Of a stretch of DNA of 33,519 bases, positions 1,717 to 33,501 are shown piece after piece. The position numbers were made by a program, and so were the translations under genes. Below the pieces are notes generated by a model that saw only the letters and a program-made list of their open reading frames with translations, was not told the DNA's origin and ran no database searches. The DNA lies in the IMG/VR virus record IMGVR_UViG_3300026543_000040, positions 1-33,519 of that record; one strand, given 5' to 3'. The DNA is from a virus (Duplodnaviria; Caudoviricetes). Position 1 is the stretch's first letter; each line of letters begins with the position of its first letter.

Positions 1717-2019
1717 TTAGGAATAGGTGTAGGTTAGTCGATCGTCCCAGACAAATTCATAGTTACCAGTAGCATTCCCTTCGGAATTCTCGGGCCATGT
1801 TTGTGATGTTAAAGAATTATTAGCATCCCAAATAAAAAAGGTGATTTGCCATTTATCTTCGCTAGTTAAAGTTCCTATTTTTGCCGTACCAAAATAAATT
1901 ACATTTCCATTTGCATCATTTTGGGCTCGATGTGTTACTTCACTATCTCGGACAATATATTCTCTTCTATCGCGAGTACCGTATTTGACGGGTCGATTAC
2001 TTTGTGGACTACTTACCAT
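1717..2019 (-). CDS. Hypothetical virion-associated protein
   Basis: ORF 1717-2058; start at 2019 preferred (GAGGTG Shine-Dalgarno). Confidence 0.6.
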   Translation of the reverse strand: MVSSPQSNRPVKYGTRDRREYIVRDSEVTHRAQNDANGNVIYFGTAKIGTLTSEDKWQITFFIWDANNSLTSQTWPENSEGNATGNYEFVWDDRLTYTYS

Positions 2020-15247: not shown

Positions 15248-15934
15248 TTAAAAATGTCCCAGATTCTTTTGGGCTTGCTGCATGAATTCCTTATCTGACA
15301 TATCCTTCCACCTTTTAGCCTGAGAGATAGGCGACGTTTGCCCGACACTAGAAAGTGATCCCGCCTTATTGGCGTTTTGAACTATGCGTTCGGCATCGGC
15401 ATTACGTGCGGTCTTCTTGTGACCCTCCTTAAAAGAGTCACTATTTTTGGCTAGGTAATAGGCTAGTTCGAAATCTTTGGTATCATGAAGCGTGCCCCTA
15501 AGACTCGGGTTGGTTTTCAACACTTCGGGTAAATACTTAGTGACAACCTCTTGATAATCGGGATATTTCTGAGTCATACGGAGTTCTTGAATCGTCATGG
15601 CGTACTTCTCTTCCCTTTTGGAAAACATCTTTTCTAGATCTCCAAAAGTGGGAACATCGTCTTTAGACATTCCTTCGAATTCGTCAGTCTTTTGTTGCTG
15701 AGGGATGGCTTGCTGTTGTTGCTGAGCCATCATCAGCGACACATTATCCTTGTACATCTTGAAGTCGTCTTGCACCCTCTGCTTATCCCTCCTCGCAGCC
15801 TGTAGGGCACTCAGAGGAACCTGTTGGTTCTCTTGGGTGTCCTCGGCCATTGAGGATTCAGAAATATCAGCGGGTACCGGACCGGCGGCGTCCGAAATTT
15901 GATCGCCCGAAACATGTGGTTCTTCGCTCATCAC
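15248..15934 (-). CDS. Capsid scaffolding protein
   Basis: Acidic N-terminus, VPLSAL coiled coil, ELAYYLAK; immediately upstream of MCP. Confidence 0.7.
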   Translation of the reverse strand: MMSEEPHVSGDQISDAAGPVPADISESSMAEDTQENQQVPLSALQAARRDKQRVQDDFKMYKDNVSLMMAQQQQQAIPQQQKTDEFEGMSKDDVPTFGDLEKMFSKREEKYAMTIQELRMTQKYPDYQEVVTKYLPEVLKTNPSLRGTLHDTKDFELAYYLAKNSDSFKEGHKKTARNADAERIVQNANKAGSLSSVGQTSPISQAKRWKDMSDKEFMQQAQKNLGHF

Positions 15935-15971
15935 GTGTAGGTTCCTTTGTCTCGCCCGTAAGTCGGCGGCA

Positions 15972-16677: not shown

Positions 16678-18747
16678 TTAGACCTCCGACGGTTCTTGAT
16701 TTATAGGTAGTTCCTGTAGTAGACTTCCTACTTCAGGAACTGTCTGTTGGGGTTCGTTAACCCTTGCAGAGATTTGGACATCGTCTTCTTTGACTTGCTC
16801 TTCTTTCACCCTATTCATCTCTTCCATAGAACGAATAATGGTGATGTATTTAAGCAGACGATCGTCATCAATAGTTTCGAGCTCCTTCATTGCTTTAACG
16901 CGTTTAAGGGCCGAATCAGCTCGGTTCGCAACAGCAGCCGAAGCTCTTTCATCTTCAAGGCCCATATTGGCTACTGAACGTGTAAATCTTTCTTTGCTAA
17001 GTGCGATATCTGATACAGCCTTCGCTTGGGCTAACTGACGCTGTGAATCAAGCAACTGCTGTTGGGCTTGTTGTTGTTGCTGAGCGGACTGCGATTGTTG
17101 CTGTTCTAGTTTTGAAAGTTCTGCGATGTATTCAGATTTGCCTTGGATAGGTGCAGATTTGGCAAGCATTTCGCCGGTAACTGGCGCGCCAAGCTGACGA
17201 AGATCGACGAGTTGTCGGAAGTACATCTGCCGCTGGGTATCTGTTAAGATTCCTTCTTGGACAGTAACGTCGTACTTTGTGAATTCTTTATTATAAAATT
17301 CCTGAGTCGGATCTTCATTGATGATCCGTTTGACCTTTTCAGGAGTCCATTTTTGAATAAGCTTTAGCACCTTAGTGCTGAGAGCTTTTTGACTGAACCT
17401 CAGATTATCAAATAATTCCTGAAGATTAACGATAGCTGCACCTTGACGCAGCATCATCATGACGCCCGATTCTCCGGCGTTTTCTGTTTGTCCAAAAGCC
17501 GCGTCATTAATCCCGGCTATTTCCATCATGTCTCTGTCGAAAAGTTCTTGAAGCTGGAACATAGACGGAGGGATCTGAGCAGGAGGTATTTTTTCTAATG
17601 CCCCAGGAGGAGCATCTTCCCTCCGCCATATGACCTTTCCTTGCGATGATTGGAAGAGACTTCTTGGATTAACGACGCTATTTTCAGTGGCGATCCATCC
17701 AGAATTTATTTGGCTATCGAGTAAGTCAATCATCTGAGATCGTCGACGATTTGACTCACGTTGCGGATCGCGCATACACCTAATCAGAGACTGTACTTTC
17801 AGGCCCCACTGGTCCGATTCAGGTTCAAAAATGGCAGTGAAAGGTACGAACGGATATTCTGCTAAATCGTAAGGATTGATCTCTGAACGCATGACGTGAT
17901 CATTAAGAATCACATGCATCTCGATGTAGCGTCTGGGTGTTTCCACCACTTTTAGCTGGGGATATGTGTCTAGAAACTTTTTAACTACATTATTATCAAC
18001 ATCAAACTCGCTGGTTTCTCCCGTTTCCATGTCGACTAGCATAGGAATGTTTCGCCACTTCTGGAGATACATTTCGCTGTAGGCCATTAATTGTTGACCA
18101 TTTGGTTGACGTTGATACGGCAACCATGTAAACTTATCGTCACGCTCCCACCCCATTTGATAAAGTGCGTGAACTTCTTTTTCCTGCCCCGGAAGAAGTG
18201 AAGCAACATGATCAACATTCAGATACTTACGGCGAAGAATGTAACCACAGTCAGAAAAATCTAATTTAGTGAAGTAAGGATCAAGGACGAAGCTATTGTA
18301 GGTCTCCCTGTTAAACTTGATGTCCCCATTAATAGGATCATCTCGATAGTCTACCCACAAACTGCACAGGTTCCAGCCAGTCTTTAAAGCGCCTCCAAAG
18401 CAATCGCTTATCATGCGATAGCCATCACCATAGTTCATGGTGTAAAGCAGAAGCTGACTAAGCTGATCAGCAGTTTTTTGATCGGAATTTTCTATAGGAG
18501 CGACTACAGAGGAAAGACGATGCTTTCTCTGATAGCCCGTGACCATGTTGACGTTTCGTCGTACACGGTTAAAGACAAATTGATTTCTGCCTTCCTGGAA
18601 GAGTTTACGCTTTTCTTGTTCATCCCACTGATCACCTAAGTAGAAACGCAAATCGCGCTCTGCTTCAGGGAAGAAGGGATCCCATGCGTAATACGCCTCG
18701 TTATACAGAGTATCGAAATCTTTGATGATGTCTAGATCAGTAGCCAT
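16678..18747 (-). CDS. Portal protein, P22-like
   Basis: 689 aa; DLRFYLGDQW, FNRVRR, YPFVPF, C-terminal Q-rich barrel helix. Confidence 0.9.
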   Translation of the reverse strand: MATDLDIIKDFDTLYNEAYYAWDPFFPEAERDLRFYLGDQWDEQEKRKLFQEGRNQFVFNRVRRNVNMVTGYQRKHRLSSVVAPIENSDQKTADQLSQLLLYTMNYGDGYRMISDCFGGALKTGWNLCSLWVDYRDDPINGDIKFNRETYNSFVLDPYFTKLDFSDCGYILRRKYLNVDHVASLLPGQEKEVHALYQMGWERDDKFTWLPYQRQPNGQQLMAYSEMYLQKWRNIPMLVDMETGETSEFDVDNNVVKKFLDTYPQLKVVETPRRYIEMHVILNDHVMRSEINPYDLAEYPFVPFTAIFEPESDQWGLKVQSLIRCMRDPQRESNRRRSQMIDLLDSQINSGWIATENSVVNPRSLFQSSQGKVIWRREDAPPGALEKIPPAQIPPSMFQLQELFDRDMMEIAGINDAAFGQTENAGESGVMMMLRQGAAIVNLQELFDNLRFSQKALSTKVLKLIQKWTPEKVKRIINEDPTQEFYNKEFTKYDVTVQEGILTDTQRQMYFRQLVDLRQLGAPVTGEMLAKSAPIQGKSEYIAELSKLEQQQSQSAQQQQQAQQQLLDSQRQLAQAKAVSDIALSKERFTRSVANMGLEDERASAAVANRADSALKRVKAMKELETIDDDRLLKYITIIRSMEEMNRVKEEQVKEDDVQISARVNEPQQTVPEVGSLLQELPINQEPSEV

Positions 18748-18952
18748 CGCATCCTAAGCGGTTTTTACTCTCCTCCGCCAAGGAAAGGATGCGAGGTCTA
18801 GATAGCGGTCTAGAATAGGATGATCAGTCCTGGCCTCGCGTGTAGGTTTAAAGCACACATATGGTGGTTCTGTGCTAAGATGTAGTCCTTACATATCTAT
18901 ATTCTATAGTTAACCTCTTAAGATATGACTATATCAAATTTTTCATTTAATT

Positions 18953-20437: not shown

Positions 20438-20846
20438 CTTCTGATTTCCATGGCTGTGGATCCTTATCTCCAAAGTTAACAATATTTATTATGGGGTCGC
20501 CTTTATGCTTTATTCCGTAGGAATCTTCCTGATGTAAGATCTGTTTTCCTAGAAATATTGCCATAGCGGCACTGGTGTCAGCTAGTATCCACTGTTTACG
20601 CCGTAGCGAACAGTGACCTCCTACTTTCCATTCAGCAAACTTCTCACTCGGGGGACATTGAAACATTTCCTTAGATGCTCTTTGTAAAGTATCTTCGGAT
20701 ATATCCAGGAATGAAGCTACTTCTCCGGAAGTACATTGCATTCGACACAATTTTTTAACTTCCTTCCAATCAATGGAAATCTTGGGTTTCTTACCAACGG
20801 AGGGAGTGCGTCCCTTAGCTTTATGCGTAGGTTCTTTTTTTTTCAT
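20427..20846 (-). CDS. terS: Terminase small subunit
   Basis: HTH, SLRRKQW, MAIFLGKQIL.Q; directly upstream of terL. Confidence 0.8.
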   Translation of the reverse strand: MKKKEPTHKAKGRTPSVGKKPKISIDWKEVKKLCRMQCTSGEVASFLDISEDTLQRASKEMFQCPPSEKFAEWKVGGHCSLRRKQWILADTSAAMAIFLGKQILHQEDSYGIKHKGDPIINIVNFGDKDPQPWKSEDAE

Positions 20847-20942: not shown

Positions 20943-21800
20943 CTATACATCTAATCCCAATCCCATATCTATTTCATATTTGTTTTTTGGAAAAGCCTTG
21001 CGGTGAAGACGTTTAAATTTTTCAGGTGAATTAGGAGGGCAGATGCGGAGCAGTACCCTAATCTGGGCCAATATAGCCATCAGTGTGGGGTCCCCGATAT
21101 CGTCTGATAACCACTGATGATTCTTCTGAGCTCGGAATCGTCCGTTTACATACGGGTTTCGGCTTCTGATTTCGTCTATTACTTGTTTAGGCATCACCCC
21201 ATAAACATAAACGCTGAGTATCTTGGATAGCCATGCACCTTCATGAATAGGCCGGTCTAGGGGTATCTCTTTCCCGTATACCCTAAGAAATCCACTCCAT
21301 ATTTCATAATCAAATCGTTTACTCCATGGTCTAAATATGTCACAAATAAATGAGTTTAAGTATGTGGCTAGTATTCCTTGTCGTGCACCGGCTAGAAACC
21401 CAGCTACATCGTAGCAAGTTCCGCGAATTCCTGTGTTGGCAAACGCCCCTATCAGCTCCCAGCATCTTTGAACAATTTGTTGTTTTACAGGACTCAGATA
21501 TTTTTCTTCACATTTGGACCTAGCAATGAGTTCAGCAAACTTATAAAGTACTGTTGCATCAAATCCTTTATAGACACGCTTTTGTCCGGCAACTTGCCAT
21601 TGAAACGGCTCTCCGATCGTCTCTTTAAACTCCCCACTTAAACGAGGGAAAAATGTTCCTTTTTGATTTGCTAGGCCGAAATATTTCTCGGCACTTCCAT
21701 ATCCTATAACCGGGGTTTCATCTTTCAAAATGGTCACCTTTAGTTTAAGGTCACCTATAATCAAATCGCCGGTGTGGTTCGTGGCTTCCCTAATCTCCAT
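20943..21800 (-). CDS. P63C-domain protein (antirepressor-associated family)
   Basis: RPWSKRF, YVYG.MP, KNHQWLSDDIG.P.L P63C motifs. Confidence 0.8.
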   Translation of the reverse strand: MEIREATNHTGDLIIGDLKLKVTILKDETPVIGYGSAEKYFGLANQKGTFFPRLSGEFKETIGEPFQWQVAGQKRVYKGFDATVLYKFAELIARSKCEEKYLSPVKQQIVQRCWELIGAFANTGIRGTCYDVAGFLAGARQGILATYLNSFICDIFRPWSKRFDYEIWSGFLRVYGKEIPLDRPIHEGAWLSKILSVYVYGVMPKQVIDEIRSRNPYVNGRFRAQKNHQWLSDDIGDPTLMAILAQIRVLLRICPPNSPEKFKRLHRKAFPKNKYEIDMGLGLDV

Positions 21801-21888
21801 GTAGGTACTTCTCCTAATCTTTTCACGCTGTGTAGGCAGTGGTTTTTTCTTACATAAATAACATCACTTCTTTTCGGGAACCTATAGT

Positions 21889-22197: not shown

Positions 22198-22230
22198 GCT
22201 CCATCTGCTGTTTCCCAGCCGACTTTGCTT

Positions 22231-22593
22231 TTATATGCCGCTGTGCTGAGTCAATTCGTTTGGACTCTTCAGACACTTTGGCTTTTCTAAGTCCAGATCG
22301 TCCCATATTCCTTTAAGCTCCCTAACTTTATTTCCGATGGAGTCGTATGAATCACAGTCATCACAAGTTTCTTTACACCTAGATAGGAACCTACCAAAAA
22401 CAGCATCTTCTAAATCATTAAGAATTCTTTTCTGATTTTTCAACGCGTGCATCTCTTTTTTGTAACTCTGCATGGCTTGGTTCAGTCCGGTTGATAATCT
22501 TGATTCCATTTTCTCCTCCTTTTCCCATCCTTTCATCTTTATTTGACAATTTTTTAGCGACCTCTTCAGTCCGCTGGATAACTTCGATTCCAC
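22231..22593 (-). CDS. Hypothetical protein with two possible starts (GTG 22593, ATG 22509)
   Basis: Both starts preceded by AGGAGGAG because of a tandem duplication. Confidence 0.55.
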   Translation of the reverse strand: MESKLSSGLKRSLKNCQIKMKGWEKEEKMESRLSTGLNQAMQSYKKEMHALKNQKRILNDLEDAVFGRFLSRCKETCDDCDSYDSIGNKVRELKGIWDDLDLEKPKCLKSPNELTQHSGI

Positions 22594-22789
22594 CTTCTCC
22601 TCCTTTTTCTATTACCGTCGTGATATAACGAATATCCGATAGATTTGTCCAAAATCCTATGTGAGTATCAGGGTGTACATACACTTGGCAGCTTGTTAAG
22701 TCTTCGAAAAACTTTGCTATCTGACCCTTCTTAATCTTTACCCGAAGAGATTTTTCGTCTTTATAATTTAGGGTGACTGTAAACTGCAT
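22418..22789 (-). CDS. Hypothetical protein overlapping the downstream gene
   Basis: Start MQFTVTL at 22789 with GGAG SD. Confidence 0.6.
   Translation of the reverse strand: MQFTVTLNYKDEKSLRVKIKKGQIAKFFEDLTSCQVYVHPDTHIGFWTNLSDIRYITTVIEKGGEGGIEVIQRTEEVAKKLSNKDERMGKGGENGIKIINRTEPSHAELQKRDARVEKSEKNS
22481..22607 (+). repeat. Degenerate direct repeat, 43-bp core, 84-bp period
   Basis: TTCAGTCCG..GATAA...GATTCCA..TTCTCCTCCTTTT at 22481 and 22565. Confidence 0.8.
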
Positions 22790-22791
22790 GG

Positions 22792-23025
22792 TTATCTCCG
22801 CTTTCCGGTTCCTTTGGGTACTAAAAATTTGGATGATCTGGGACTGGTTTTTCTCCACTTAAGCTCTTCTGTCTTCAAAGCTATAAGTTCTTTTTCTTTT
22901 TCTTTACGTCGCTCGGCAATAGGAGAGCTGTACGTTTTCTCCGTACGTCTCGCAGCTTCTTCTATAGCTTCTAGTTCACGATAGCCGTCTGTGCCGGTAA
23001 TTCTGCTTCTATTTGGTCGGGACAT
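22792..23025 (-). CDS. Basic hypothetical protein (77 aa)
   Basis: GAGG SD, first gene after the intergenic region. Confidence 0.55.
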   Translation of the reverse strand: MSRPNRSRITGTDGYRELEAIEEAARRTEKTYSSPIAERRKEKEKELIALKTEELKWRKTSPRSSKFLVPKGTGKRR

Positions 23026-23049
23026 TTTTTTTTAATTTTCCTCGAATCG

Positions 23050-23112
23050 AAGGTTCAAAAGGTTCAAAAGGTCTAAAAACATTACTTCTGAACCTTTTGG
23101 ACCCCCGAACCT
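23050..23112. repeat. 9-bp tandem repeats with inverted copies
   Basis: AAGGTTCAA x2, AAGGTCTAA, then TGAACCTTT/TGGACCCCC/GAACCT. Confidence 0.65.
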
Positions 23113-23226
23113 AAGGTGGTTAGTGGCTCAGATCAGCAATAACTAATTATAAAAAAATAGTATTGTCGAAAAAAGTCGAGTTTCCATAGGATGAGGATAA
23201 GCCTGCACAGACTTATCCTATCGCAT

Positions 23227-23259
23227 AGACCCGGTAACCTACCAAGTAACCGGGTTTTT
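23227..23259 (+). terminator. Intrinsic terminator antisense to the operon
   Basis: ACCCGGT...ACCGGGT followed by a T tract. Confidence 0.6.
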
Positions 23260-23298
23260 GCTTTTCTAGAGATTATGTCCTGAACATTTTATTCCCTT

Positions 23299-23835
23299 TC
23301 ATTCGCTGCCAGCCTCGATCACAAAGCTACTTCTTAGTAAGTGAGCAGGGAAATACTTGGGATTCTGTCCGGATTTTTCAGCTAATTTTTTGACGATCTC
23401 GTTTACGAACGTCCACTTTATTGTTCCTGGTTTAATGACACCCGACTGGCCAATATATCGAAATAATGGTCCCTCTTTTTCCCCGAGTAGTTCGAGCCAT
23501 TTCCGTAGATATTTCGCCGCTAAACCTGAGACGGGCTTAAGGTTATCACTTCTCGGCATGTGGAACAGAAAGCAGTACACTAGGTCTTCTAGGTGTTCGA
23601 TTCGGGCTTCCTCTGCTTCTATTCGGCGACGTCCTCCACTAGCAAACATGAATGCTAAGAGCGCTCTATCGCGGATGCCAATAGTATCAGTCGTCGTTTG
23701 GTCCAACAGGTTATCCAGCAGATGTCGACTAATCGGCATTGGCTGAATGCTTGATGCGTAGTTGATGTCTCGGAATTTTTTAAAATGGTATCTCTTCACA
23801 TGTAAGCCCATACTTTTTTTGACGCTCAGATTCAT
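23299..23835 (-). pseudogene. Truncated tyrosine recombinase catalytic domain
   Basis: GIRDRALL..FASGGRRR.E and AHLLRSSF present; ends before the second His/Tyr nucleophile; RSKT lysine loop absent; no N-terminal domain. Confidence 0.75.
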
Positions 23836-24154
23836 CGTTCTCCACTATCCATTTTTTAATAGCTTCTAAAGCTTGCTGACAAAAAGCTTCTCTCTGGGAT
23901 TTCTCTCGAAAAAATAGAATGGGAGCAAATTTTTTCTCTCCCTGGTCATTTTCATACTCCTTGGATGGTAAGTTAACCCAGTAATGTCCATCCGAAGGAG
24001 TTTTTTCCTCCCCATAATTATCCTTTTGACAGCTAGTTTTCCGGCAAAGTGAACATCCATGAATTTCCACGTTCCACTTTGGAACATAGATATCTGCAAA
24101 TCCTTGCAAAAACCCTTTCTGAAAACTTTTAAATCTGATACATTCTATGGCCAC
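23780..24154 (-). CDS. SpoVG-like/single-stranded DNA-binding protein
   Basis: GFADI, WVNLPSKEY motifs, acidic EEIPF C-terminal tail. Confidence 0.65.
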   Translation of the reverse strand: MAIECIRFKSFQKGFLQGFADIYVPKWNVEIHGCSLCRKTSCQKDNYGEEKTPSDGHYWVNLPSKEYENDQGEKKFAPILFFREKSQREAFCQQALEAIKKWIVENDESERQKKYGLTCEEIPF

Positions 24155-24160
24155 GGATGC

Positions 24161-24313
24161 TCACTTCTTTCCTTTTTTAGAAGAACCTTTCTTCTTTTTC
24201 CTGGCTGTATCCATGGCTATGGCTACTGCTTGCTTCTGAGGGTAACCTGAACCTTTAAGTTCTTTGATGTTGGAACTAACGGTCTTCGAATCCGAGCCTT
24301 TTTTTAACGGCAT
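24161..24313 (-). CDS. Small basic phage protein (50 aa, MPLKKG...QKQAVAIA type)
   Basis: Translated by hand: MPLKKGSDSKTVSSNIKELKGSGYPQKQAVAIAMDTARKKKKGSSKKGKK; AAGGAG SD; below the ORF-track cutoff. Confidence 0.85.
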   Translation of the reverse strand: MPLKKGSDSKTVSSNIKELKGSGYPQKQAVAIAMDTARKKKKGSSKKGKK

Positions 24314-24467
24314 TTTCACACTCCTTTAAATAGTGAAGAAAGCTGTCTTCACATATTTCGTTTGTAAATCCTCCCTGACACGCTAAACAAATGCCGGTAG
24401 GATTAGATATTACAAGTTTTCGGCAAGTAACACAGGTCATCCAACTGACGTCAGGAGGTTTCATCAT
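24276..24467 (-). CDS. Small zinc-finger protein
   Basis: CxxC...CxxC. Confidence 0.55.
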   Translation of the reverse strand: MMKPPDVSWMTCVTCRKLVISNPTGICLACQGGFTNEICEDSFLHYLKECENAVKKRLGFEDR

Positions 24468-24732
24468 CTAGGGCGACCTCTCTTAATGCTTCGGTATACA
24501 CGTCATGCACACCGTGGTTAATATGATGAAGTCTAAATCCAGTATTGAAAAATTCATCTTTCATTATACTTGACATAATGAACTGAATTTTGTCAGCCTT
24601 GGCGTGCACTTCTTCAAGTTGGCTATACCATTGTTTTACAACCCTACCATCGCAGGTAAGAATGGTGATAAGATCACTGGGATGAACCCACCCCGTTCCT
24701 TCCTCCCACATCTTTACTTCGTCCTCACCCAT
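24451..24732 (-). CDS. Hypothetical protein (93 aa)
   Basis: Overlapping start/stop with its neighbours. Confidence 0.55.
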   Translation of the reverse strand: MGEDEVKMWEEGTGWVHPSDLITILTCDGRVVKQWYSQLEEVHAKADKIQFIMSSIMKDEFFNTGFRLHHINHGVHDVYTEALREVALDDETS

Positions 24733-25162
24733 TAGCTTCTTTCCTACTTTCAGGAGTGGATTCTAGGGGAGTAATAAATATTTCTACTTTCGCTTTATCG
24801 GAGAAGATTTTTTCACAGTGGAGAGTTGTTATAAGTCGATCATCTTCGTAAACCAGATCAGTCATTACATCGAGATAGTACTTGGCCAGATTATCGATGT
24901 CTGGTTTCGTTGGCTTAGGATCGCCTTTTAAGGCACCTTCCTTGCGTTTACGTGCCATACCCATATGAAATCTAAGACGAACCGCGATAGGGCCTGTATA
25001 TGGCCTTAAAAGCCCAAATTCATGCATTTGGTTACTTATATGAAGTCGGTCAACAGTTTTGGACGCAAATTGTTTGTCATAACAGAATGGAGTTCCATTC
25101 TTTCCGACAGCGATGCGGGGTCTCTGCTGAGCCTGAGGTTTGCCGTAAATTACAAATTTCAC
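24725..25162 (-). CDS. rusA: RusA-family Holliday junction resolvase
   Basis: G.P....RPR, KPDIDNLAK..LD, DDRLI motifs. Confidence 0.9.
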   Translation of the reverse strand: MKFVIYGKPQAQQRPRIAVGKNGTPFCYDKQFASKTVDRLHISNQMHEFGLLRPYTGPIAVRLRFHMGMARKRKEGALKGDPKPTKPDIDNLAKYYLDVMTDLVYEDDRLITTLHCEKIFSDKAKVEIFITPLESTPESRKEANG

Positions 25163-25347
25163 AGGCTCGCCTTTTTTACTGATTTTTTACCGCTTTCTTT
25201 TACTATCTTTTTATGTTTGCGACACCATTTCTTCACGCATGTTTTGTGACATTCATTACAACGACCTAGACTTTGCGAATACCTCCAAAAAATCTCGAAG
25301 GGGTAATCTTTATCTTTTTTGCATAGCGCACATTGAACTTGTACCAT
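25159..25347 (-). CDS. Small zinc-finger protein
   Basis: Start MVQVQCALC at 25347; CxxC...CxxC. Confidence 0.55.
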   Translation of the reverse strand: MVQVQCALCKKDKDYPFEIFWRYSQSLGRCNECHKTCVKKWCRKHKKIVKESGKKSVKKASL

Positions 25348-25651
25348 CGGAAATAATCCTAATTTTGCATTCGTTTTGACGATATTGCGTGTAAGCTTCT
25401 GCTTTCTCCGTAAGGAGTGGTAGGGGGATTTCGTAAAACTCACTGATAGCATTTAGTTCTTCTTCACGGGGCATCTGTCGAAAATATCCGGTCTCCAAGT
25501 TCTTCAATCTATTAAGACGCATTCCTAGGAATTCCGCTGCCCGGTATTGCATCAACCCAATACGATCCCGTGATTGTCTAAGAATCTGAGGGAATTCCAT
25601 TGTTTCCATTTCTAGGTGAAGTTTTTTCATTATGTCCTGGAAAACTCGCAT
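25310..25651 (-). CDS. XRE-family HTH regulator
   Basis: LRQSR..GLMQ..AAEFLGM....L.NLETG. Confidence 0.8.
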   Translation of the reverse strand: MRVFQDIMKKLHLEMETMEFPQILRQSRDRIGLMQYRAAEFLGMRLNRLKNLETGYFRQMPREEELNAISEFYEIPLPLLTEKAEAYTQYRQNECKIRIISDGTSSMCAMQKR

Positions 25652-25715
25652 TTCATTTTCTCCGAGATTTAATTTTTCAATAATTGGTTTGCCACTAAAT
25701 ATGTATAAGAATATT

Positions 25716-26279
25716 TTATTCTGTGCAAATTAAACCCCGTATATCTTCACCTTCAAAATAGATCCATAGAAATTCTTTCAAGCGAGAAAGGATTCTGGCT
25801 CCATAAATTCCTTTAATTTGGGAATCCGATAAGTTAGTACTGATGATGGTTGGACGCTCCCAGGCTACACGTTCATCAATGATTTCATAGTAATCTCTCT
25901 CGGCGCGTTCAGTGGGTCTTTCTATTCCAAAGTCATCCAGGAAAAGAAATGGAATTTCCTGCATCTGCTGAATTAAATAAGACGCTGAACCGTACATCTT
26001 TAAATTTTCAATAATCTGATCATCCAAACTTTTGCTTTTAAACCATCGAATCCCACCCAGTTCTAAGTGTTTAAACATTTCCCTTGCCAAGGCGTACATC
26101 AGGTAAGTTTTTCCAAGTCCAGTATTTCCACTAAGCAGAAGGCTATTTATCGGGTTTTCACTCCACTTTTTTCCAACCTCATATCTTTCCTCGGACATGA
26201 ACTTGTTCACTCTTAGTTGGGCCTTCTGGTATCGCGGAGGGACTTTGTTTAACCGGCAAAATTCTTCCCATCGGTTCAT
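25716..26279 (-). CDS. DnaC/IstB-like ATPase (helicase loader)
   Basis: Walker A GNTGLGKT, Walker B LFLDDFG, TIISTNL, RILSRL. Confidence 0.9.
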   Translation of the reverse strand: MNRWEEFCRLNKVPPRYQKAQLRVNKFMSEERYEVGKKWSENPINSLLLSGNTGLGKTYLMYALAREMFKHLELGGIRWFKSKSLDDQIIENLKMYGSASYLIQQMQEIPFLFLDDFGIERPTERAERDYYEIIDERVAWERPTIISTNLSDSQIKGIYGARILSRLKEFLWIYFEGEDIRGLICTE

Positions 26280-27109
26280 AAATTTTCAAGGGTAGCTAGT
26301 CTAGGCTTCCATGTGCTCGGAGTACTCTTCCTGTCTTCGTTTTCGAAACATAGCTTGGAGCCTTTGCGGAAAGCACCCGGTTCGGTTTTCTTTCGTCTAT
26401 ACCAAGACTTAAGCGTGGAGTAGTGAGATCTATATCTCTTGCCGGTAGACCCGAGGTAGTCGTTAAGTTCTTCGATTAGATTGGAAAGTTTTCCGGAGCC
26501 GAATTCAGTTTCAAGTGTGGAATACTCAGAGTGGGTCAGCTGAACGTGGGAATCAGAGCCGAATGGGTAAAGTTTCGATGAAGAAGCGGATTTTGAAGAA
26601 TTGGAAGAAGCGGACGCAGAACGCGCTTTAGCGCGAGCCCCCTTTGGGGGTTTGGGGGTCTTTCTCTCTTCTTTGTTATAAGCTTTGTTATCTATATATG
26701 TGGGAACGTCCTTTTCGACGGGTCTGACCCGTCCTTTTCGACGGGTCTGACCCGCACTATAATGCGGGTCTGACCCGCACTCACTTTCGTTTGTTTCGTA
26801 ATTTTCATCTTCTTTTTCGTATTCGGCTGGAGGAACTATGGCCTTAAGGATTCTAAATCTACCATTGTAAGAGACCTGTTCGAGTAGACCCTTTTTCTTT
26901 AGTTCAAGTAGATATTTTTGTAGCTGCCTCTCCTTGAAGCCCATGAATTCACAGAGATAGTCATTACTGGCATAACATCCACCATGTTTAGTCATGTATA
27001 GTGAATGAATCTCAGACCACAAGAGGACAGCCATCTTAGACAAGTCCGGCACGAGCCAGATTTCTTTTGGAATCCAGATTCCTTTGAAGTCGCGCAAGTC
27101 ACGATTCAT
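26276..27109 (-). CDS. Phage replication initiator (N-terminal winged HTH)
   Basis: RDFKGIWIP, GCYASNDYL; GGAGGAG SD before ATG 27109; upstream of the DnaC-like gene; contains iterons. Confidence 0.85.
   Translation of the reverse strand: MNRDLRDFKGIWIPKEIWLVPDLSKMAVLLWSEIHSLYMTKHGGCYASNDYLCEFMGFKERQLQKYLLELKKKGLLEQVSYNGRFRILKAIVPPAEYEKEDENYETNESECGSDPHYSAGQTRRKGRVRPVEKDVPTYIDNKAYNKEERKTPKPPKGARAKARSASASSNSSKSASSSKLYPFGSDSHVQLTHSEYSTLETEFGSGKLSNLIEELNDYLGSTGKRYRSHYSTLKSWYRRKKTEPGAFRKGSKLCFENEDRKSTPSTWKPRLATLENL
26671..26781. repeat. Putative replication origin: three 23-bp iterons plus an AT-rich tract
   Basis: Units at 26707, 26730, 26753 with palindrome CGGGTC-T-GACCCG; CTTTGTTAT x2 adjacent. 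Confidence 0.8.
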
Positions 27110-27163
27110 TTTTCTCCTCCTCTGCAGTTTGTGCAAAAGAAGAAAAAACTCATTAAATAAAGA

Positions 27164-27191
27164 TAGACTAATTTAGTGAATCGATTATAAT
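27164..27191 (+). promoter_or_regulatory. Antisense sigma70-type promoter
   Basis: TAGACT-16 nt-TATAAT. Confidence 0.5.
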
Positions 27192-27215
27192 GTGCGGAGT
27201 ACACATAGATACTGC

Positions 27216-27370
27216 GGTCTAACTGATCGTATTGATACATATGTTTTCCTTGTGATGAGGGTCTGTGTGTTGATGTAGCTGTTTTGGCCTAATTGATCGT
27301 AGTGAGACACTCTGTTCTTTTAGTGATTGCAACCCGAAGTAGTTGTGTGTCGATTGCAAGTTGTTCTTTC
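27216..27370 (+). repeat. Degenerate tandem duplication, 70-bp offset
   Basis: GGTCTAACTGATCGTATTGATACA vs GGCCTAATTGATCGTAGTGAGACA. Confidence 0.65.
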
Positions 27371-27577
27371 TTAAAGAGTAATTGTTTTTATATGTGACCA
27401 TTATTTGGTTAGATTTATCCTTTTTGCGGGGATATTGACGAGATAATTTACGCATTTATTGAACAAGGCTTTTCTAAAATAGCCACTCACGAACCGCTTG
27501 TGATCCGTATGTTTGGACTCAGTCATGACTTTTGGTAGGGGAGTGGCAGATTTCACATATTTTCCTAATCTTGATTG

Positions 27578-27649
27578 GTCGCTTCTTGCGTCCGGTCTTG
27601 CGTGTAGGTGGCTGAGAAGGGAGTGGTTCCCGTCTCGGCCTTTTTTTTT
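27578..27649 (+). ncRNA. Candidate trans-acting antisense sRNA (5' end uncertain)
   Basis: Seed CTTGCGTGTAGGT directly 5' of a strong terminator; complementary to several mRNA leaders; possible promoter TGGCAG-16-TAATCT (27544-27571). Confidence 0.6.
27610..27649 (+). terminator. Strong intrinsic terminator
   Basis: GGCTGAGA.GGGA...TCCC.TCTCGGCC followed by T9. Confidence 0.8.
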
Positions 27650-27669
27650 CACTAAGCGACAAAAGTTCT

Positions 27670-27927
27670 TTATACACTTTTTTGCTTATCGTGAGTAATT
27701 TTATAATTTTTTATCTCTTCTTGCATTTCTTTAGGTAGAAGTTCTTCTATCGTCACTTCTCCGTTGGTGAATATACAAATTTTTAAAGCTGTACTTAGCT
27801 TTGGGGTTATTTTTGAAGCTTTAATATTACTGAGGGTGACCGCACATATTCCTGTATCTAGAGCTATTTTCTTCAAAGTCATTTTTTTTCTCCACACATA
27901 TTCATCTAGATCCATCTCTTCTCCCAT
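27670..27927 (-). CDS. Cro-like HTH regulator
   Basis: MDLDEY, IA..TGI...TLSNI, T.GEVT.EELL; first gene of the leftward early operon. Confidence 0.8.
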   Translation of the reverse strand: MGEEMDLDEYVWRKKMTLKKIALDTGICAVTLSNIKASKITPKLSTALKICIFTNGEVTIEELLPKEMQEEIKNYKITHDKQKSV

Positions 27928-28033
27928 TTTAATTAAATATTTAATTTTTATATCTGAATGATGTAAATTTTAACTTATATGCTCTTCACTATATATATTT
28001 CCACACTATATTTTCCAGGTGTTATTTTTTTCG

Positions 28034-28063
28034 TTGCATAATTAAATGCTAGTTTGATATAGT
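28034..28063 (+). promoter_or_regulatory. Rightward early promoter
   Basis: TTGCAT-18 nt-TATAGT with TGn extension. Confidence 0.55.
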
Positions 28064-28157
28064 TGGGTATATCCGGATAATCGGGAGTTTATTTGGATAA
28101 CGAATACGAAGATGAACACAATAAATAGGCCATTACCTACACGCAAGGAATAAAATC

Positions 28158-28997
28158 ATGAATAATGAAGTCACAGTAAAAAAATCAGAGAACATGGTTC
28201 TTGAAATACAAGAAACACAAAAAATGTGTCAGATGTTGATGAGTTCTCCACATTATGAAAAATTAGGCAGGTCGGGAATTTTTGCCATTGTCCAGAAAGC
28301 TAAATCTATTGGTGTTTCCCCTCTGGATGCATTAAATGGAGGGATGTATTATGTAAATGGAAAGGTTGAAATGTCTGCCACCATGATGAATCAGTTGATT
28401 CGAATGCACAAACATTCTATTAGCAAGGACAAGCGTAGTGATTCTACCATATGCATTCTGCATGGTAAGCGTGCAGACAACAATGATACTTGGGTATCTA
28501 GTTTTTCTGTGGACGAAGCTAAACAGGCTGGGATTTTTAAAAATACATGGCTTAGGTATCCCACGGATCTTCTGTTTGCACGAGCTCTTTCTCGTTTGGC
28601 ACGTCAGCTTTTTCCAGATGTAATTAAAGGATGCTATGTACAAGGGGAAATTAGTGAAGCTCCCGTAGTAGATCCTTCAGAGTCCCCCCCCTTGTTATCA
28701 AACGTTGTGGCTGTGTCTCAGAATGAATCAGTTATCAGTGATACTAAAGAAGTATCAGTAGATGCAGAGGAAGTGCCAAAAATAAATGAAGAAGAATATC
28801 AAGCTTTAGATAGTTGGCTTGGAGGTAACCATGTCTTGCGTAACAACATCGCGACTTTTATTAAGAAAAAGTGGGATATAAACGACATGCGCTTTATGCC
28901 GCGTCAGATATATGGCCATTCTCTTAAGCGTGCAAAAGAACAACATGTTGAAGTCGAACAGATGTATGGAGAACAGCTTCAAGCTGTAGCTGGATAG
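28158..28997 (+). CDS. RecT-like single-strand annealing protein
   Basis: G.SPL.AL, EAKQAG, W.RYP..L.ARALSR.AR..FPDVI.G; paired with an exonuclease. Confidence 0.8.
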   Translation: MNNEVTVKKSENMVLEIQETQKMCQMLMSSPHYEKLGRSGIFAIVQKAKSIGVSPLDALNGGMYYVNGKVEMSATMMNQLIRMHKHSISKDKRSDSTICILHGKRADNNDTWVSSFSVDEAKQAGIFKNTWLRYPTDLLFARALSRLARQLFPDVIKGCYVQGEISEAPVVDPSESPPLLSNVVAVSQNESVISDTKEVSVDAEEVPKINEEEYQALDSWLGGNHVLRNNIATFIKKKWDINDMRFMPRQIYGHSLKRAKEQHVEVEQMYGEQLQAVAG

Positions 28998-29007
28998 AAA
29001 TTCGTGT

Positions 29008-29052
29008 AAAAACAAATGCCCAACAAAACCTTGAGAAATTGCTGGGCATTTG
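29008..29052 (-). terminator. Antisense intrinsic terminator
   Basis: CAAATGCCCAGCAA...TTGTTGGGCATTTG followed by TTTTT on the minus strand. Confidence 0.6.
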
Positions 29053-29163
29053 AAAACAACATACAGAACCCCTAGGAAAAGGGTACTTCCTATATCATAT
29101 AGAAAATTTCATTTTATGCAAAATTTTTGTTTTCATTAGTTCAATTATAAGAAGGAAAACGTT

Positions 29164-30015
29164 ATGTCCGCCCTAATTCAAGGTACACAAGAATGGTTAG
29201 AAGTAAGAAAAACTCATATAGGAGCCAGCGATGCGCCTATAATTATGGGAGATAGTCCATGGAAGACATGCTATCAATTGTGGGAGGAGAAATTAGATTT
29301 ATGTGAACAACCCAGAATGAATTCAGCTATGCAGCGTGGTCATGATCTCGAACCTATAGCTAGACAGGTTTATAACGATCATACCGGAAATTGTGCTGAG
29401 CCTGAGGTTTTATTTCATCCGGAACACAAATGGATGATGGCTTCTCTGGACGGTATTTCATTAGATCGATCTATCATTGTAGAGATCAAATGTCCCGGCA
29501 TTCATGATCATGCGACCGCAGCAAAAGGGGGCATTCCCGAAAAATATTATGCCCAATTACAACATCAGCTTGTCGTAGCTAATTTAAATCTGTTACATTA
29601 TTTTTCTTACCGTGAGGGAGAATTTTACTTGGTAGAAGTAGAACGAGACGAAAAGTATATTCATAAAATGCAGTCCACGGAAGAGGTTTTTTGGGAAAAC
29701 CTTAGCGACTTCAAACCTCCTGAATTATCCGATCGAGATTATATAGATAAGGACGACGATCTCTGGTTGCGTACTGCGCAAAACTGGAGTGACTCACACA
29801 ATAAGTTGGTAGAAATTAAGGGTGAGGAGAAGTCTTATCGGGAAAGCTTAATCCAGCTTGCTAACAATAAAAATTGCAGAGGAGCGGGAGTTAAGATACA
29901 AAAGGTTGTAAGAAAAGGATCCGTAGATTATAAATCTATTCCATCACTCTCGGGAGTTGATCTAGAAGGTTATAGAAACTCACCGGTAGAAACCTGGAGA
30001 CTTAAGTCAATTTAG
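29164..30015 (+). CDS. YqaJ/lambda-exonuclease family nuclease
   Basis: QGT.EWL..R, IGASD, ASLDG, EIKCP, YYAQLQHQ. Confidence 0.92.
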   Translation: MSALIQGTQEWLEVRKTHIGASDAPIIMGDSPWKTCYQLWEEKLDLCEQPRMNSAMQRGHDLEPIARQVYNDHTGNCAEPEVLFHPEHKWMMASLDGISLDRSIIVEIKCPGIHDHATAAKGGIPEKYYAQLQHQLVVANLNLLHYFSYREGEFYLVEVERDEKYIHKMQSTEEVFWENLSDFKPPELSDRDYIDKDDDLWLRTAQNWSDSHNKLVEIKGEEKSYRESLIQLANNKNCRGAGVKIQKVVRKGSVDYKSIPSLSGVDLEGYRNSPVETWRLKSI

Positions 30016-30051
30016 GGTTTGTGTTTACCGTTTAATAAATATTCAGGCCTA

Positions 30052-30143
30052 TTCTGCCGATGTCATGTAACTCACCTCTGAGTGGATGGTAACAGGTGGT
30101 ATCTGCGTCTTCTTGGGGGTGACTTACATGACATTCGGCAGAA
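30052..30143 (+). other. Long (92 nt) intergenic hairpin
   Basis: TTCTGCCGATGTCATGTAA...TTACATGACATTCGGCAGAA extended by G-U pairs. Confidence 0.8.
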
Positions 30144-30175
30144 AAAGAGATAAAATCAGGAGGTGATGATATATA

Positions 30176-30466
30176 ATGGATAAATTTAATGACAAGTATA
30201 AAATTCATTGGATGGGTTCTATATATCAAAATTCTTCATATGACACCAGAATTTGTAATTATATGAAAGATTTACATTCTTGGTATCAGCACAGAAAAGA
30301 GAAATATAAAGATACTTATAACGATTGCTATAGAAAAAAAGAAATTATCGTAGATAGTAGTAGGTGTTCACGGGATAGCAAAGCAGAAACAAATTCCTAT
30401 TTAGTAATGTTTGAAGGACATAAGGAGGATTTGGAAAAAGTTTTATCATCTTTAGGAAGTGATTAG
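30176..30466 (+). CDS. Hypothetical protein, paralog A (candidate toxin)
   Basis: AGGAGGT SD; overlaps the Panacea gene start. Confidence 0.6.
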   Translation: MDKFNDKYKIHWMGSIYQNSSYDTRICNYMKDLHSWYQHRKEKYKDTYNDCYRKKEIIVDSSRCSRDSKAETNSYLVMFEGHKEDLEKVLSSLGSD

Positions 30467-31028
30467 TAGCTTTGATGTTGCGGCATACATCGTAAAACAA
30501 CGCCAAAAAGGCTCCTCGAAGCTGACAGCAATGAAGCTTCAGAATCTGCTGTATTACTGCCAAGCTTGGTCGCTCGTTCGGGAAGAAGCACCGCTTTTTA
30601 CCGAAGAAATTCAAGCCTGGGCAATGGGGCCTGTCATCACAGAATTGTACGATTGGCATCGTGGCATGTTGTATGTAGAGATCGGGTCGAAAGGAGATCC
30701 TGACGCCCTCAGCCCGGAACAGCAAGACACCGTCGATCGCATATTAGATGTATACGGCCACAAGACTGCGCAGTGGCTTAGTAATCTTACTCATATGGAA
30801 ACACCTTGGAAAGCCGCTCGTGCAGGGCTACAGCCTGGAGAGTGGGGATCCAAGACCATTACCCACGCAAGCTTGCACGAGTATTACGACAGCCTTGATG
30901 GAGATGAAAAAGCCCATACTATAGTGTGGTATACGGAGGGTATTCCTATACTGGATTATGGGATTTGTTGTATTTGTTGCCATATTTTTTATAACATCTA
31001 TTTACAAACTAATTTTTATCATGGATAA
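30459..31028 (+). CDS. Panacea (DUF4065/GepA/SocA-like) antitoxin-domain protein
   Basis: MKLQ.LLYY.QAW, LF.E.IQAW..GPV, L..LTH.E.PW. Confidence 0.88.
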   Translation: MISSFDVAAYIVKQRQKGSSKLTAMKLQNLLYYCQAWSLVREEAPLFTEEIQAWAMGPVITELYDWHRGMLYVEIGSKGDPDALSPEQQDTVDRILDVYGHKTAQWLSNLTHMETPWKAARAGLQPGEWGSKTITHASLHEYYDSLDGDEKAHTIVWYTEGIPILDYGICCICCHIFYNIYLQTNFYHG

Positions 31029-31317
31029 ACTTAATAAAAAGCCTGAACCTAACCGAATGTTCTCGGTATATAAAAATTCTTCCTATATGGGAACTATCTG
31101 CACCTGTATAGAACCTACATCTTCTTGGTATCAACGTGTACGAGATACCCATGAAAAGGGGCGCAGAGAATATGAAGGTACTGAGCCGAATTCAGATGAT
31201 GAAGATATAGAAGCCGCTATCCTAATGTGGCATTCAAATGAAACTAAAAAGTTTACCGAAAAATTCCCATTTGTAAGAAGAGAAGTTGACACTAATCTTC
31301 CTCGGAATCCGGAGTAA
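30958..31317 (+). CDS. Hypothetical protein, paralog B (start 30958 with hydrophobic N-terminus, or 31021)
   Basis: Shares MDK.N.K.....M.S.Y.NSSY...IC.......SWYQ with 30176-30466. Confidence 0.6.
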   Translation: MGFVVFVAIFFITSIYKLIFIMDKLNKKPEPNRMFSVYKNSSYMGTICTCIEPTSSWYQRVRDTHEKGRREYEGTEPNSDDEDIEAAILMWHSNETKKFTEKFPFVRREVDTNLPRNPE

Positions 31318-31540
31318 GATCTATCTTAAGACCGGTATGTTCTTCAATTTCTGCTTCTAAGAGTTGTTCGGCTACATTGTCATCCTTAAGATGTAATTTT
31401 TTGTTAATGTATGAACATCCTCCGGATGTGATAATAAATAACGTAATAAATAAAACAGATCGCATAATCCATTTTCCTAATTCAGGTCGATGGTTCTCGT
31501 TATCTTTTAAGATGTAATTGAAAAGTCTTGATAGTTTCAT
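31292..31540 (-). CDS. Putative lipoprotein/membrane protein
   Basis: Hydrophobic stretch then SGGC lipobox-like site; last gene of the late operon. Confidence 0.6.
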   Translation of the reverse strand: MKLSRLFNYILKDNENHRPELGKWIMRSVLFITLFIITSGGCSYINKKLHLKDDNVAEQLLEAEIEEHTGLKIDLTPDSEED

Positions 31541-31767
31541 TTTTCTTGTAATGAATCTCCGTTATTCATACCGGCTACGGACTCCAGAGGTATAGAACTA
31601 GGAGTATAACCATTAGCAGTAGTAGTGCAATCAGTATAGACATTTCCCGATGCATCTGGCACCGCCTGTGTATTAACTTGATCTCGTAAAAAATCTATTC
31701 CTCGAGAGCATACTCCTACATATTGGAGTGGAGCGTCAAAAGGAACTCCCACTTTATTTCGAGCCAT
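31537..31767 (-). CDS. Hypothetical protein (76 aa)
   Basis: AGGAG SD. Confidence 0.6.
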   Translation of the reverse strand: MARNKVGVPFDAPLQYVGVCSRGIDFLRDQVNTQAVPDASGNVYTDCTTTANGYTPSSIPLESVAGMNNGDSLQEK

Positions 31768-31776
31768 AAGATGCTC

Positions 31777-32028
31777 CTATAAGGTGAAAAAATCTATTTT
31801 CGGCTTTTTAAATTTCCCAGCAATTTTTCTAGCTTCTTCGTCGGTAGCCTCATCTATGACAATAACGATCTTCTTATATTCAGTATTTAATATGGATTGA
31901 ACTCCTTTTACTTTAGATAAAAATTTTTTATCTACAAGAATCAAAGCATCAATTATTTCATCCACACCGAAATAATTTCTCCAAGTTAGGAGGTCTCGTA
32001 TATCTCTTTTAATTTTTTCTTTATCCAT
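31777..32028 (-). CDS. Hypothetical protein
   Basis: Start at 32028 coupled to the upstream stop (TAATG). Confidence 0.6.
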   Translation of the reverse strand: MDKEKIKRDIRDLLTWRNYFGVDEIIDALILVDKKFLSKVKGVQSILNTEYKKIVIVIDEATDEEARKIAGKFKKPKIDFFTL

Positions 32029-33477
32029 TATTGATCTCCCATGTTTCCGATGCCCCATAAAACAAGCTGATCGGATGAGTCAACATTTGCAAGCTGCAAT
32101 GCTGTGTTGCCGATATTATCTAAAACAATATCCATTGCTGATGGATTAGCTCCGACTTGATTATGATAAGCTACTTGGAAAGTAGATCCAGAAGCATCAA
32201 AATAACGCCCTGAAGCACTCACATATTCCGTTGATGCAGATTCTCCATAAGGTTGGGAAACTAGCGCGGCTACAGCTCCCACTCCCCCCGTGGTGACCCC
32301 TCCAAAAGAGCATTGAAATCGAAATTCTCCGGTACGAGAAATCCAGTATCTGTAACTAGTGGTGTCACTCCAGACTGGAGCTGTTCCTCCATTGTCCAAA
32401 AAATGTTTGCCGGCTGCTGCACCGTTATGTCCTACTGGAAAAAGAAATTGTCGATTTTCTTGCCAGTGTCCTACTCCATCTTGTATATCTAAAGCTGTCA
32501 ATGTCCATACATCACTAGAATCTTTGGTAGCTCGGATAGTTCCAATTCCACCAATTGCCTTAGACGTATAGTTAGTTTGGGTTATGTCATTCCACGCAAA
32601 TACACTGTATTGTTCATCGGCTGTAGCGCTAGATGGATCACCAATATCACCATCACTAGAAGGTGTAGATCTCAGGGGAATGGTTCGGTAGATAATAGGT
32701 TCTAAATTGGCGTCACTACTATCGGCCATGAAGCCTATTGCTAATGGCATCGGGTTTCCCCAGGCTACGGCAACTGTAGAACCTAAGAGATTATCGGTTA
32801 AATCGGTTACTGTTAAAGTATCGTTGGCTGTTACAGGAAGGAGTACATAGGTGCCAGGAGTCGCATTGGAAGGCATCAAGATGTATCCTGGATTAGTTGA
32901 ACTTAGGGCAGTACCTTCATATCCATGTAAAGTTAATGTGCCGGCAGCATGTGTAAATCCTAGATTCCACATCCAACAATTTAATCCCTGAAGCATAGAT
33001 GGTTTTAATAGATTCGGAGCCGCTGATGTGACTCCTACTAGAATCTGACCATCTGTGGGAGCGCCGCTAGATGTGACTTCTGTGGTAGTATTGGCATATA
33101 CTATTCCATTGGCAGTCATTCCTGTTTCTAATGCAAGAATGCCCGATGCGTCTGGAGCTGTAAAAGTTCTAGTAGTTCCTGTAGTGATTGATGAAGCTTC
33201 AAAAGCAATTTCTTTGGTATTGTCTCCATCATCTACAATTCGAAAAGCATTATCAACAAATTCGCTTGATGGAGAAGTCCCTCCACCAGCTGTAATTGCT
33301 GGAAGTAATCCTCGAAGATCAATTTCATCTATTGAAGTCCATGTTCCACTAGCGGCTACTTGATGACGTAATTTCCATTCTGAAATTAAAAATCCTGTTC
33401 CTACGAAGTCGGTTGGAATCGTATAAGTGGCAAAATTATCTAAATCAGTTTCAACTCCAGTTTTATTATTATAGGAA
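32028..33477 (-). CDS. 3' part of the split tail fibre/receptor-binding protein
   Basis: In frame with 45-955 via the terminal repeat; TRTFTAPDASG fibre motif; MCIRDR start in the ORF track is adapter. Confidence 0.8.
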
Positions 33478-33501
33478 CCTGAAGGTAGGTTACAAAAAAG
33501 C
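33478..33501 (+). repeat. Terminal direct repeat, right copy
   Basis: Identical to 45-68. Confidence 0.95.

Follow-up and report, generated by a model that had tools for sequence, protein, structure and literature searches.

The window, i.e., the whole stretch of 33,519 nucleotides analyzed here, is a circular-looking phage contig of 33.5 kb; its ends overlap by 24 nt, by which one short motif is counted twice, and carry adapter remnants of the library at 1-42 and 33500-33519. It encodes a P22-like portal protein (16678..18747, − strand; PF16510, E 1.7e-81), capsid, terminase, RusA, a DnaC-like loader, a replication initiator, two small HTH proteins, RecT, and a YqaJ exonuclease, along with a scaffold gene that is named from its position before the capsid gene and has no family match. 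The gene for the RecT-like annealing protein (28158..28997, +; PHROG RecT-like) is the first of a divergent early operon. The Cro-like HTH gene (27670..27927, −; weak HTH_26/HTH_3 matches, nearest clusters YdaS/Cro) diverges from recT, and the replication initiator gene, rep (26276..27112, −; PHROG replication initiation, HTH_36), is next on the cro strand. Just beyond the stop codon of cro, on the opposite strand and convergent with it, lies the locus of a predicted small RNA, with rep downstream on the cro strand.

The original prediction took this element for an RNA that replaces CI, noting that no CI gene lies opposite cro. No CI/S24 repressor was indeed found among the 46 ORFs of the window that were scanned, nor was a full integrase, and 77 cluster representatives from 32 loci likewise contained no CI and no full integrase. 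A conserved partition system was not found and ParA is absent; a ParB_N-like domain scores at the cut-off in many relatives. The sole recombinase of the window is a tyrosine-recombinase catalytic domain standing alone (23299-23835, −; 178 aa); neither this domain nor the ORF at 27219-27455 had a tblastn match in 28 related phages. Between the recombinase-domain gene and a 77-aa gene sits an inverted repeat (23047-23108) with 24-nt arms made of 9-nt repeats, and more hairpins occur at 23186-23261. A Panacea/SocA-like antitoxin-domain gene in the early operon (30459-31028, +) was not found in relatives, and tandem repeats within rep (26729-26776) are an iteron-like origin candidate.

The fold and a covariance model place the conserved core of the predicted RNA at 27572..27649 (+). 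It starts with a 5′ hairpin (27573..27597), variable in sequence among relatives, whose 3′ arm extends the portal-leader pairing in the window phage. Then comes seed A (27597..27609), a single-stranded linker that is unpaired in the fold and covaries with early and portal leaders. An intrinsic terminator (27610..27649; stem 27610-27640, T9) follows, as judged from stem covariation and its U-tract, and its conserved loop (27621..27629) is seed B, the variants of which are matched by each phage's own leaders. The 20-mer at 27590-27609 that drew attention to the locus does sit directly 5′ of a hairpin and T9. The element is larger than it first seemed; the second seed in the terminator loop and the structured portal leader had been missed.

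The segment 27572-27649 folds with −33.9 kcal/mol (z −4.0), and the minus strand folds too (z −4.4). Two-sided changes occur at 11/11 pairs of the terminator stem, with a covariation score of 0.82 versus 0.26 after shuffling and at most 0.29 when the alignment is slid. Folding each strand yields 72 G-U pairs on the + strand versus 9 on the − strand, the + strand is the more stable in 33 of 39 members, and the U-tract belongs to the + strand in 38/39 members and to the − strand in 1/39. A conserved sigma-70 promoter was not found upstream (mean best score 8.7 versus 8.4 shuffled; 38 loci). An unstranded 209-nt contig (27429-27637) in sequencing runs X2 and X3, one of them labelled metatranscriptomic, faintly hints at expression and at a longer 5′ end (27429..27571, +), the library label being uncertain and the two runs, equal in size, possibly a single data set. 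These runs gave no contig over 100-20000 or at other places in 20000-33400, which does not prove absence.

RecT searches yielded 15, 72, 4, and 80 loci, and the covariance model R1, built from 17 elements, recovered 40 distinct syntenic loci in constant orientation (the window and the 17 training elements included; two loci were accepted at E about 0.04 because they are syntenic). Among 66 unrelated loci, no R1 match fell below E 0.05. Three further members (L304, L302, and L338) were found later. The near-identical L120 (to L121) and duplicate contigs were left out, and G006 was unscored. All 40 members share one layout: variable 5′ hairpin, linker seed A, conserved-loop terminator, and U-tract. 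At 51 distinct cro-recT loci, the RNA is present in 27, absent from 19 despite enough sequence, and 5 are too short beyond cro; thus 19 of the 46 relatives with enough sequence have no RNA. A loose pattern scan of viral contigs returned about 2400 matches, mostly chance, and served only as a negative control; a tighter one returned 15, of which seven were true members (six known, one new) and eight were unrelated and unstructured. Five Chlamydiota genomes contained no R1 match at E 0.001, and the phage contig of G001 carries a degenerate copy (E 0.034). Rfam covariance models gave no match up to E 1 in the window and none at gathering score in six relatives. We conclude that this is a real, uncatalogued phage RNA family.

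In one subgroup (L031, L034, L038, L044, L045, L047, L144, L161, and L338), seed A forms a hairpin with itself, with a loop of 4 to 5 nt; most of these phages are without recT-operon targets, and the targets seen are portal or other leaders. In the relative L134, which lacks the RNA, cro is followed by another kind of terminator (3614-3641), whose stem-loop reads as anti-Shine-Dalgarno plus anti-start.

Seven sites in the window had been quoted as complementary to the 20-mer, and all seven are present where they had been placed. In the recT leader, a target on the + strand (28135..28147) is complementary to seed A at 13/13 positions and reaches the Shine-Dalgarno sequence; under a third-order Markov model, 3.5e-4 such perfect matches are expected. 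Enrichment in leaders, a check proposed at the outset, was found: the 8-mer complement occurs four times outside the RNA gene, 4/4 in sense-strand leaders, which make up 8% of positions (0.64 expected; binomial p 4.6e-5). When the 14-nt seed was ranked against 44 leaders, recT (−24.2 kcal/mol), portal (−23.8), scaffold (−18.1), and P63C (−15.4) were the top four. The mean of the top three was matched by 0/1000 shuffled seeds, and nothing below −13.3 kcal/mol appeared on the antisense strands of leaders. By the same ranking, neither the cro leader nor the rep leader is a trans target. The targets lie 0.5 to 12 kb from the RNA gene. At the scaffold-gene start (15916..15942, −), a seed A site covers the ATG (15942-15929) and a seed B site falls in codons 4 to 6 (15922-15916); the seed A site is retained in 4/5 orthologous leaders. 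The P63C gene start (21774..21845, −), fourth of the 44 leaders, carries partial seed A sites and seed B-like sites, two of each, and its start-proximal sites, partly within coding sequence, are retained in both relatives with the gene. P63C is plausible as a weaker target.

Two of the quoted sites did not survive comparison among phages. The terS site (20821..20832, −) was seen in 0/13 of the orthologous starts shown, and the 1727 site (1727..1734, −), which lies in the last codons of an upstream ORF, in 1/12 of the orthologous leaders shown. Not conserved in orthologues, both are probably incidental, and we reject them as targets. It had also been argued that the substitutions in the targets run in the direction that G-U pairing tolerates. 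In a fixed 13-nt frame, G-U pairing is kept in only 10 of 22 mismatches at the originally quoted sites, and across relatives there is no enrichment (35/160 versus 504/2410; p 0.76). A further test of direction gave 22 versus 26 in 41 of 90 early leaders and 16 versus 7 in 17 portal leaders, with p from 0.05 to 0.43 depending on the null, and noncognate portal pairs have the same ratio (269 versus 120). With three neutral tests in which the direction was not enriched or merely borderline, we reject it as evidence of pairing.

Seed-target covariation in related phages, by contrast, was looked for and is present for both seeds (permutation p about 1e-4 or less). In the first genes of the relatives' recT operons, the complement of seed A lies just 5′ of the Shine-Dalgarno sequence and that of the loop between the Shine-Dalgarno sequence and the ATG. 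Over 39 loci, matches to the phage's own recT-operon leaders scored 5.38 versus 4.86 ± 0.09 for seed B and 9.15 versus 8.16 ± 0.15 for seed A, each with 0/100,000 permutations; the permutations ignore phage relatedness, and the starts of the early leaders were chosen by eye. At least 10/13 seed A matches occur in 17 of 39 loci versus 0.74 with shuffled leaders. In portal-type leaders from 14 phages, a loop run of at least 7 nt (7-8 nt) is present in 12/14 (p 1.1e-4), and these matches cover the variants of L003, L009, L041, L052, and L148, but not that of L010. The portal seed A duplex averages −26.0 kcal/mol with the phage's own leader versus −19.8 with those of others (0/100,000); since the seed A site itself served as the anchor for the portal leaders, only this contrast of cognate versus other counts there. 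Six distinct loop variants each have their own complement and fall in separate parts of a RecT tree that is quick and weakly resolved (29/57 branches open). L304, L302, and L338, which came to light once the pattern had been established, each fit their own portal leader, one of them at 13/13.

The agreement has exceptions. About a third of the members show no match in the leaders of the recT operon, and a seed B site is missing from the window's own recT leader. At the 18 variant-loop loci, the phage's own loop beats the consensus in its recT-operon leaders in 8, ties in 6, and does worse in 4; the score rises to 10/18 once portal leaders are added, and most ties and losses come from the subgroup without any early-leader sites. 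Furthermore, at the portal leader the sites run colinearly with the RNA, and in early leaders their order is crossed; one RNA may therefore not use both seeds at once on an early leader. The portal leaders of L005, L007, L040, and G001, which have no clear RNA, are without the toehold described below; L020 is ambiguous.

Might these matches be by-products of short repeats that the RecT/RecE system has homogenized? The phage does encode RecT and a YqaJ exonuclease, and leaders within a single phage are alike. Since the shared words span only 7 to 13 nt, have unrelated flanks, change their order, and yet keep fixed structural positions, we regard this explanation as barely credible.

The portal gene has the most elaborate of the target leaders. 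From its 5′ end (− strand), the order is a hairpin (18851..18876) whose loop shows the complement of seed B (18870-18864), the seed A toehold, and a three-way junction closed by a helix between segments a and b. The toehold and segment a (18827..18847) are complementary to seed A and the 5′ arm of the RNA. Segment b (18786..18800) pairs either with a, leaving the start freer, or with segment c (18741..18755), which contains the ribosome-binding site and start codon, and then the start is buried; in the window, b and c form a 15-nt inverted repeat. Helix a/b is paired in 96/96 cells across 16 leaders and 4/6 pairs covary; helix b/c is paired in 76/79 cells and 2/5 pairs covary. In the seven leaders folded, the loop complement is unpaired in the first hairpin (mean 0.68 to 0.97). 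Predicted folding of growing transcripts has helix a/b form first, the two full-length states are near-equal in energy, and even with no block the portal start is difficult to open. With the seed site blocked, opening of −12 to +6 becomes costlier in 14/15 leaders, by +3.5 kcal/mol on average versus +0.6 for a control block. The portal leader is thus, as modeled by folding, a conserved bistable switch with two exclusive covarying helices, one of which buries the start codon. L029, L045, and L338 have no junction, and their seed site lies directly on the Shine-Dalgarno sequence, which points in the same direction, namely repression. Besides, the L020 portal leader keeps the junction with an unclear toehold, and in L012, whose portal gene has a different leader, a structured leader precedes a short non-portal ORF (1545-1668, −).

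The motifs could instead be protein-binding RNA sites of the nut type on the sense transcripts, with the + strand terminator merely stopping convergent transcription. In lambda, nutR lies after cro and nutL in the first early leader, and the positions here are similar. The minus strand, which has a stable fold of its own as given above (z −4.4), reads a hairpin with the B motif and then the A motif right after cro, hairpin before toehold as in the portal leader, and the G-U direction tests lend pairing no support. Against this, the G-U pairs and U-tracts point to the + strand as the selected one, and six loop variants would demand six changes of protein specificity. A and B come in a different order and at a different spacing in early leaders than in portal leaders, the window has no candidate small antiterminator before recT, and segment a belongs to a covarying helix without which the start codon is buried. 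We therefore judge nut-like sites unlikely.

A DNA-level reading would make the motifs asymmetric, stoperator-like operators for the Cro-like or the second HTH protein, with 27597-27609 as one more operator. Two HTH genes are present, the sites are oriented with transcription and near starts, and seed A lies within a short palindrome in eight or so members. Operators would not account for a B motif held in the loops of covarying stems, both in the RNA gene and in the portal leader, or for wobble pairs that are strand-asymmetric; moreover, the targets are half-sites only. This reading appears highly improbable.

The position of the RNA between cro and rep, found in 30/30 members with enough sequence (9/39 loci were too short to reach rep), suggests in addition a relation in cis. 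No minus-strand terminator or attenuator was found between the RNA locus and rep in any of the 30 members, and therefore a cro-rep read-through transcript would carry the full complement of the RNA. In this complement, as in the portal leader, a hairpin is followed by a toehold. On both grounds, we infer that the RNA is of cis-antisense origin and that the cro-rep transcript may act as its sponge. Could it then be mainly a counter-transcribed RNA of the plasmid type that limits the replication initiator in cis, with the distant matches secondary? The order of small repressor gene, antisense RNA, and initiator gene resembles copG-RNAII-repB of pMV158, where, in the accessible part of that report, RNAII is a hairpin with a single-stranded 5′ tail and a U tail (PMC4485353). 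Unlike in plasmid counter-transcribed RNAs, the rep start is not overlapped (the RNA lies 58 to 670 nt from it), an attenuator was found in 0/30, and conserved trans targets lie elsewhere. Given the tight covariation of these distant sites, around which the portal leader is organized, a mainly cis-acting RNA seems very unlikely.

Three observations concern the same interval. A second + strand terminator stands between rep and the RNA gene in 10/30 members (e.g., L008, L009, and L003), which implies a further short antisense transcript, placed much like OOP. In the window, a promoter-like site at 27164-27191 faces this second terminator. On the − strand of L003 (8870-9030) and L004 (820-905), the stretch between rep and the RNA gene contains repeats of ribosome-binding leaders, with tiny ORFs.

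Taken together, we regard the locus, with a probability of about 0.8, as a conserved phage gene that encodes a predicted small antisense RNA; the two seeds of this RNA covary with target leaders, and it likely represses translation. The multi-target antisense RNA of the original prediction is in this way well supported by stem covariation, strand asymmetry, two-seed covariation, and the portal switch, and has lost its G-U argument and two of its sites. Comparison of sequences establishes the fold, the strand, the complementary seeds, their covariation with targets, and the exclusive portal helices as predicted features; expression, loop kissing, toehold invasion, and translational repression would be the steps built on them. 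The RNA would be made from the + strand. At the portal leader, a kissing contact would form between the terminator loop and the first hairpin, and seed A, once bound to the unpaired toehold, would displace segment b from helix a/b. Segment b would then be available to pair across the start codon, switching it off. Loop kissing that shifts the folding of a leader is known from the counter-transcribed RNAs R1 CopA, pT181, and ColIb Inc. In the leaders of early genes and of the scaffold gene, the seeds themselves would mask the ribosome-binding site or ATG, and in early leaders they may act singly. The cro-rep read-through transcript may be a cis target, or else a sponge that releases the late genes. 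At every conserved site, the predicted direction is repression.

The host is likely of the Chlamydiota, probably environmental chlamydiae, given the distribution of the RecT profile, the cro-recT cassettes, and the decayed phage pieces in chlamydial contigs. The RecT profile matched 20/400 Chlamydiota genomes versus 1/401 and 0/401 in two other phyla. Cro-recT cassettes without the RNA occur in chlamydial contigs G254:C1 (1.19-1.22 Mb), G003:C126, G153:C1, and G273:C364, and those of G003 and G254 adjoin integrases. A 223-kb chlamydial contig (G172:C4, 208.6-212.3 kb) holds a decayed capsid gene (68%) and terminase pieces. A whole syntenic phage (G001:C1; L335, L336) lies in a Chlamydiae bin (capsid 84%, portal 75%), though such binning is weak host evidence, and an archaeal bin that also contains phage genes (capsid 77%) counts against a Chlamydiota host. 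We therefore consider these likely to be a family of tailed Chlamydiota phages and related islands; no description of such a family was found in the open-access literature. Some relatives have chlamydia-type accessory genes (L029:12163-12918, L019:11665-12852, and L096:3988-4749), with a Pgp3 C-terminal-like match below the cut-off, an F-box, and a glycosyltransferase domain.

As to its role, we put at roughly even odds that the RNA keeps the phage quiet and excludes kin with the same seeds, the variants being immunity groups, and at somewhat longer odds that it serves lytic timing. Quiescence with specificity groups fits better than timing because early recombination and head genes would be repressed together and because the seeds diversify along with their targets. 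Replacement of CI in immunity or dormancy, as first proposed, would accord with the absence of CI; full integrases are equally absent, and 19/46 relatives do without the RNA. As regards CI-type immunity, the recT leader is a target and the cro and rep leaders are not; decayed genes of related phages do lie in Chlamydiota chromosomes. We offer tentatively, at clearly less than even odds, a more specific proposal: in these CI-less tailed phages of Chlamydiota, one RNA may be the immunity or dormancy repressor, a cis-antisense RNA of cro-rep by origin that has come to silence early and late operons by way of copies of its recognition layout, including the portal toehold switch, with seed variants as immunity groups.

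An intrinsic terminator, an exposed seed, and conserved short complementarity to several distant leaders would place the RNA with trans-encoded sRNAs. The closest phage parallels are C4 (RF01695) and the P4 CI RNA, which also have two separate seeds, one of them over a ribosome-binding site. C4 is encoded in, and processed from, the operon that it controls, upstream of icd/ant-like genes. Unlike C4, the window RNA is encoded opposite cro-rep, outside its target operons; it targets separate early and late operons and no antirepressor operon, and it has no Rfam match. Where C4 has three stem-loops and a closing stem cut by RNase P, the window RNA is linear, hairpin-linker-terminator, with its own terminator and a loop that is a seed. 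As far as the available parts of two reports go, C4 of P1/P7 is about 77 nt long and has an immunity role, one of its two seeds occludes the ribosome-binding site, and seed changes give specificity groups (PMC5320573, PMC8201110).

Lambda OOP, P22 sar, lambda aQ, and BTP1 STnc6030 are antisense RNAs that bias development or block superinfection, according to the accessible portion of a review of phage sRNAs, which contains no comparable case (PMC12197685). The window RNA lies near the OOP position in the cro-cII-O interval. Unlike these RNAs, each of which acts on a single overlapped transcript, it has short seeds for several distant leaders. With pMV158 RNAII it shares its place as an antisense RNA between a small repressor gene and an initiator gene. 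From the likely host phylum, IhtA of Chlamydia trachomatis is, in the part of the report available, an Hfq-independent RNA with a 7-nt loop seed acting at the start codons of more than one mRNA (PMC4355289). The loop seed is common to both RNAs; IhtA, in contrast, is host chromosomal with a single functional loop, that part of the report mentions no structured switch, and the two have no sequence or Rfam relation. Terminator loops also regulate fepA, likely without pairing, as described in the accessible text (PMC11979758).

The open-access literature, to which our search was confined (subscription papers being outside its scope), has no description of the present RNA family. The phage antisense RNAs found there act on one overlapping or neighboring operon, or on host genes, whereas the predicted targets of the window RNA belong to early and late operons that are separate from each other, and its terminator loop doubles as a second seed. 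The portal leader, with its kissing hairpin and toehold, would be a natural counterpart of an engineered toehold repressor, and the covarying pairs from about 40 phages provide ready cognate and noncognate controls.

The family also offers a testable answer for start-associated repeats elsewhere, e.g., in Cluster K mycobacteriophages. Their Start Associated Sequences, asymmetric and 13 nt long, precede many starts, and four of the phages have a single copy in the opposite orientation; the available part of the report leaves open whether the binder is RNA or protein (PMC3203893). The sequence is unrelated to ours, and an RNA partner and covariation are visible only in the window family. No opposite copy with at most two mismatches was found in the examined parts of Pixie and TM4. 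In phage Anaya (JF704106; L374:29811-29954), the opposite-orientation copy lies between genes 96 and 97, where it is predicted to occupy the loop of a long + strand hairpin.
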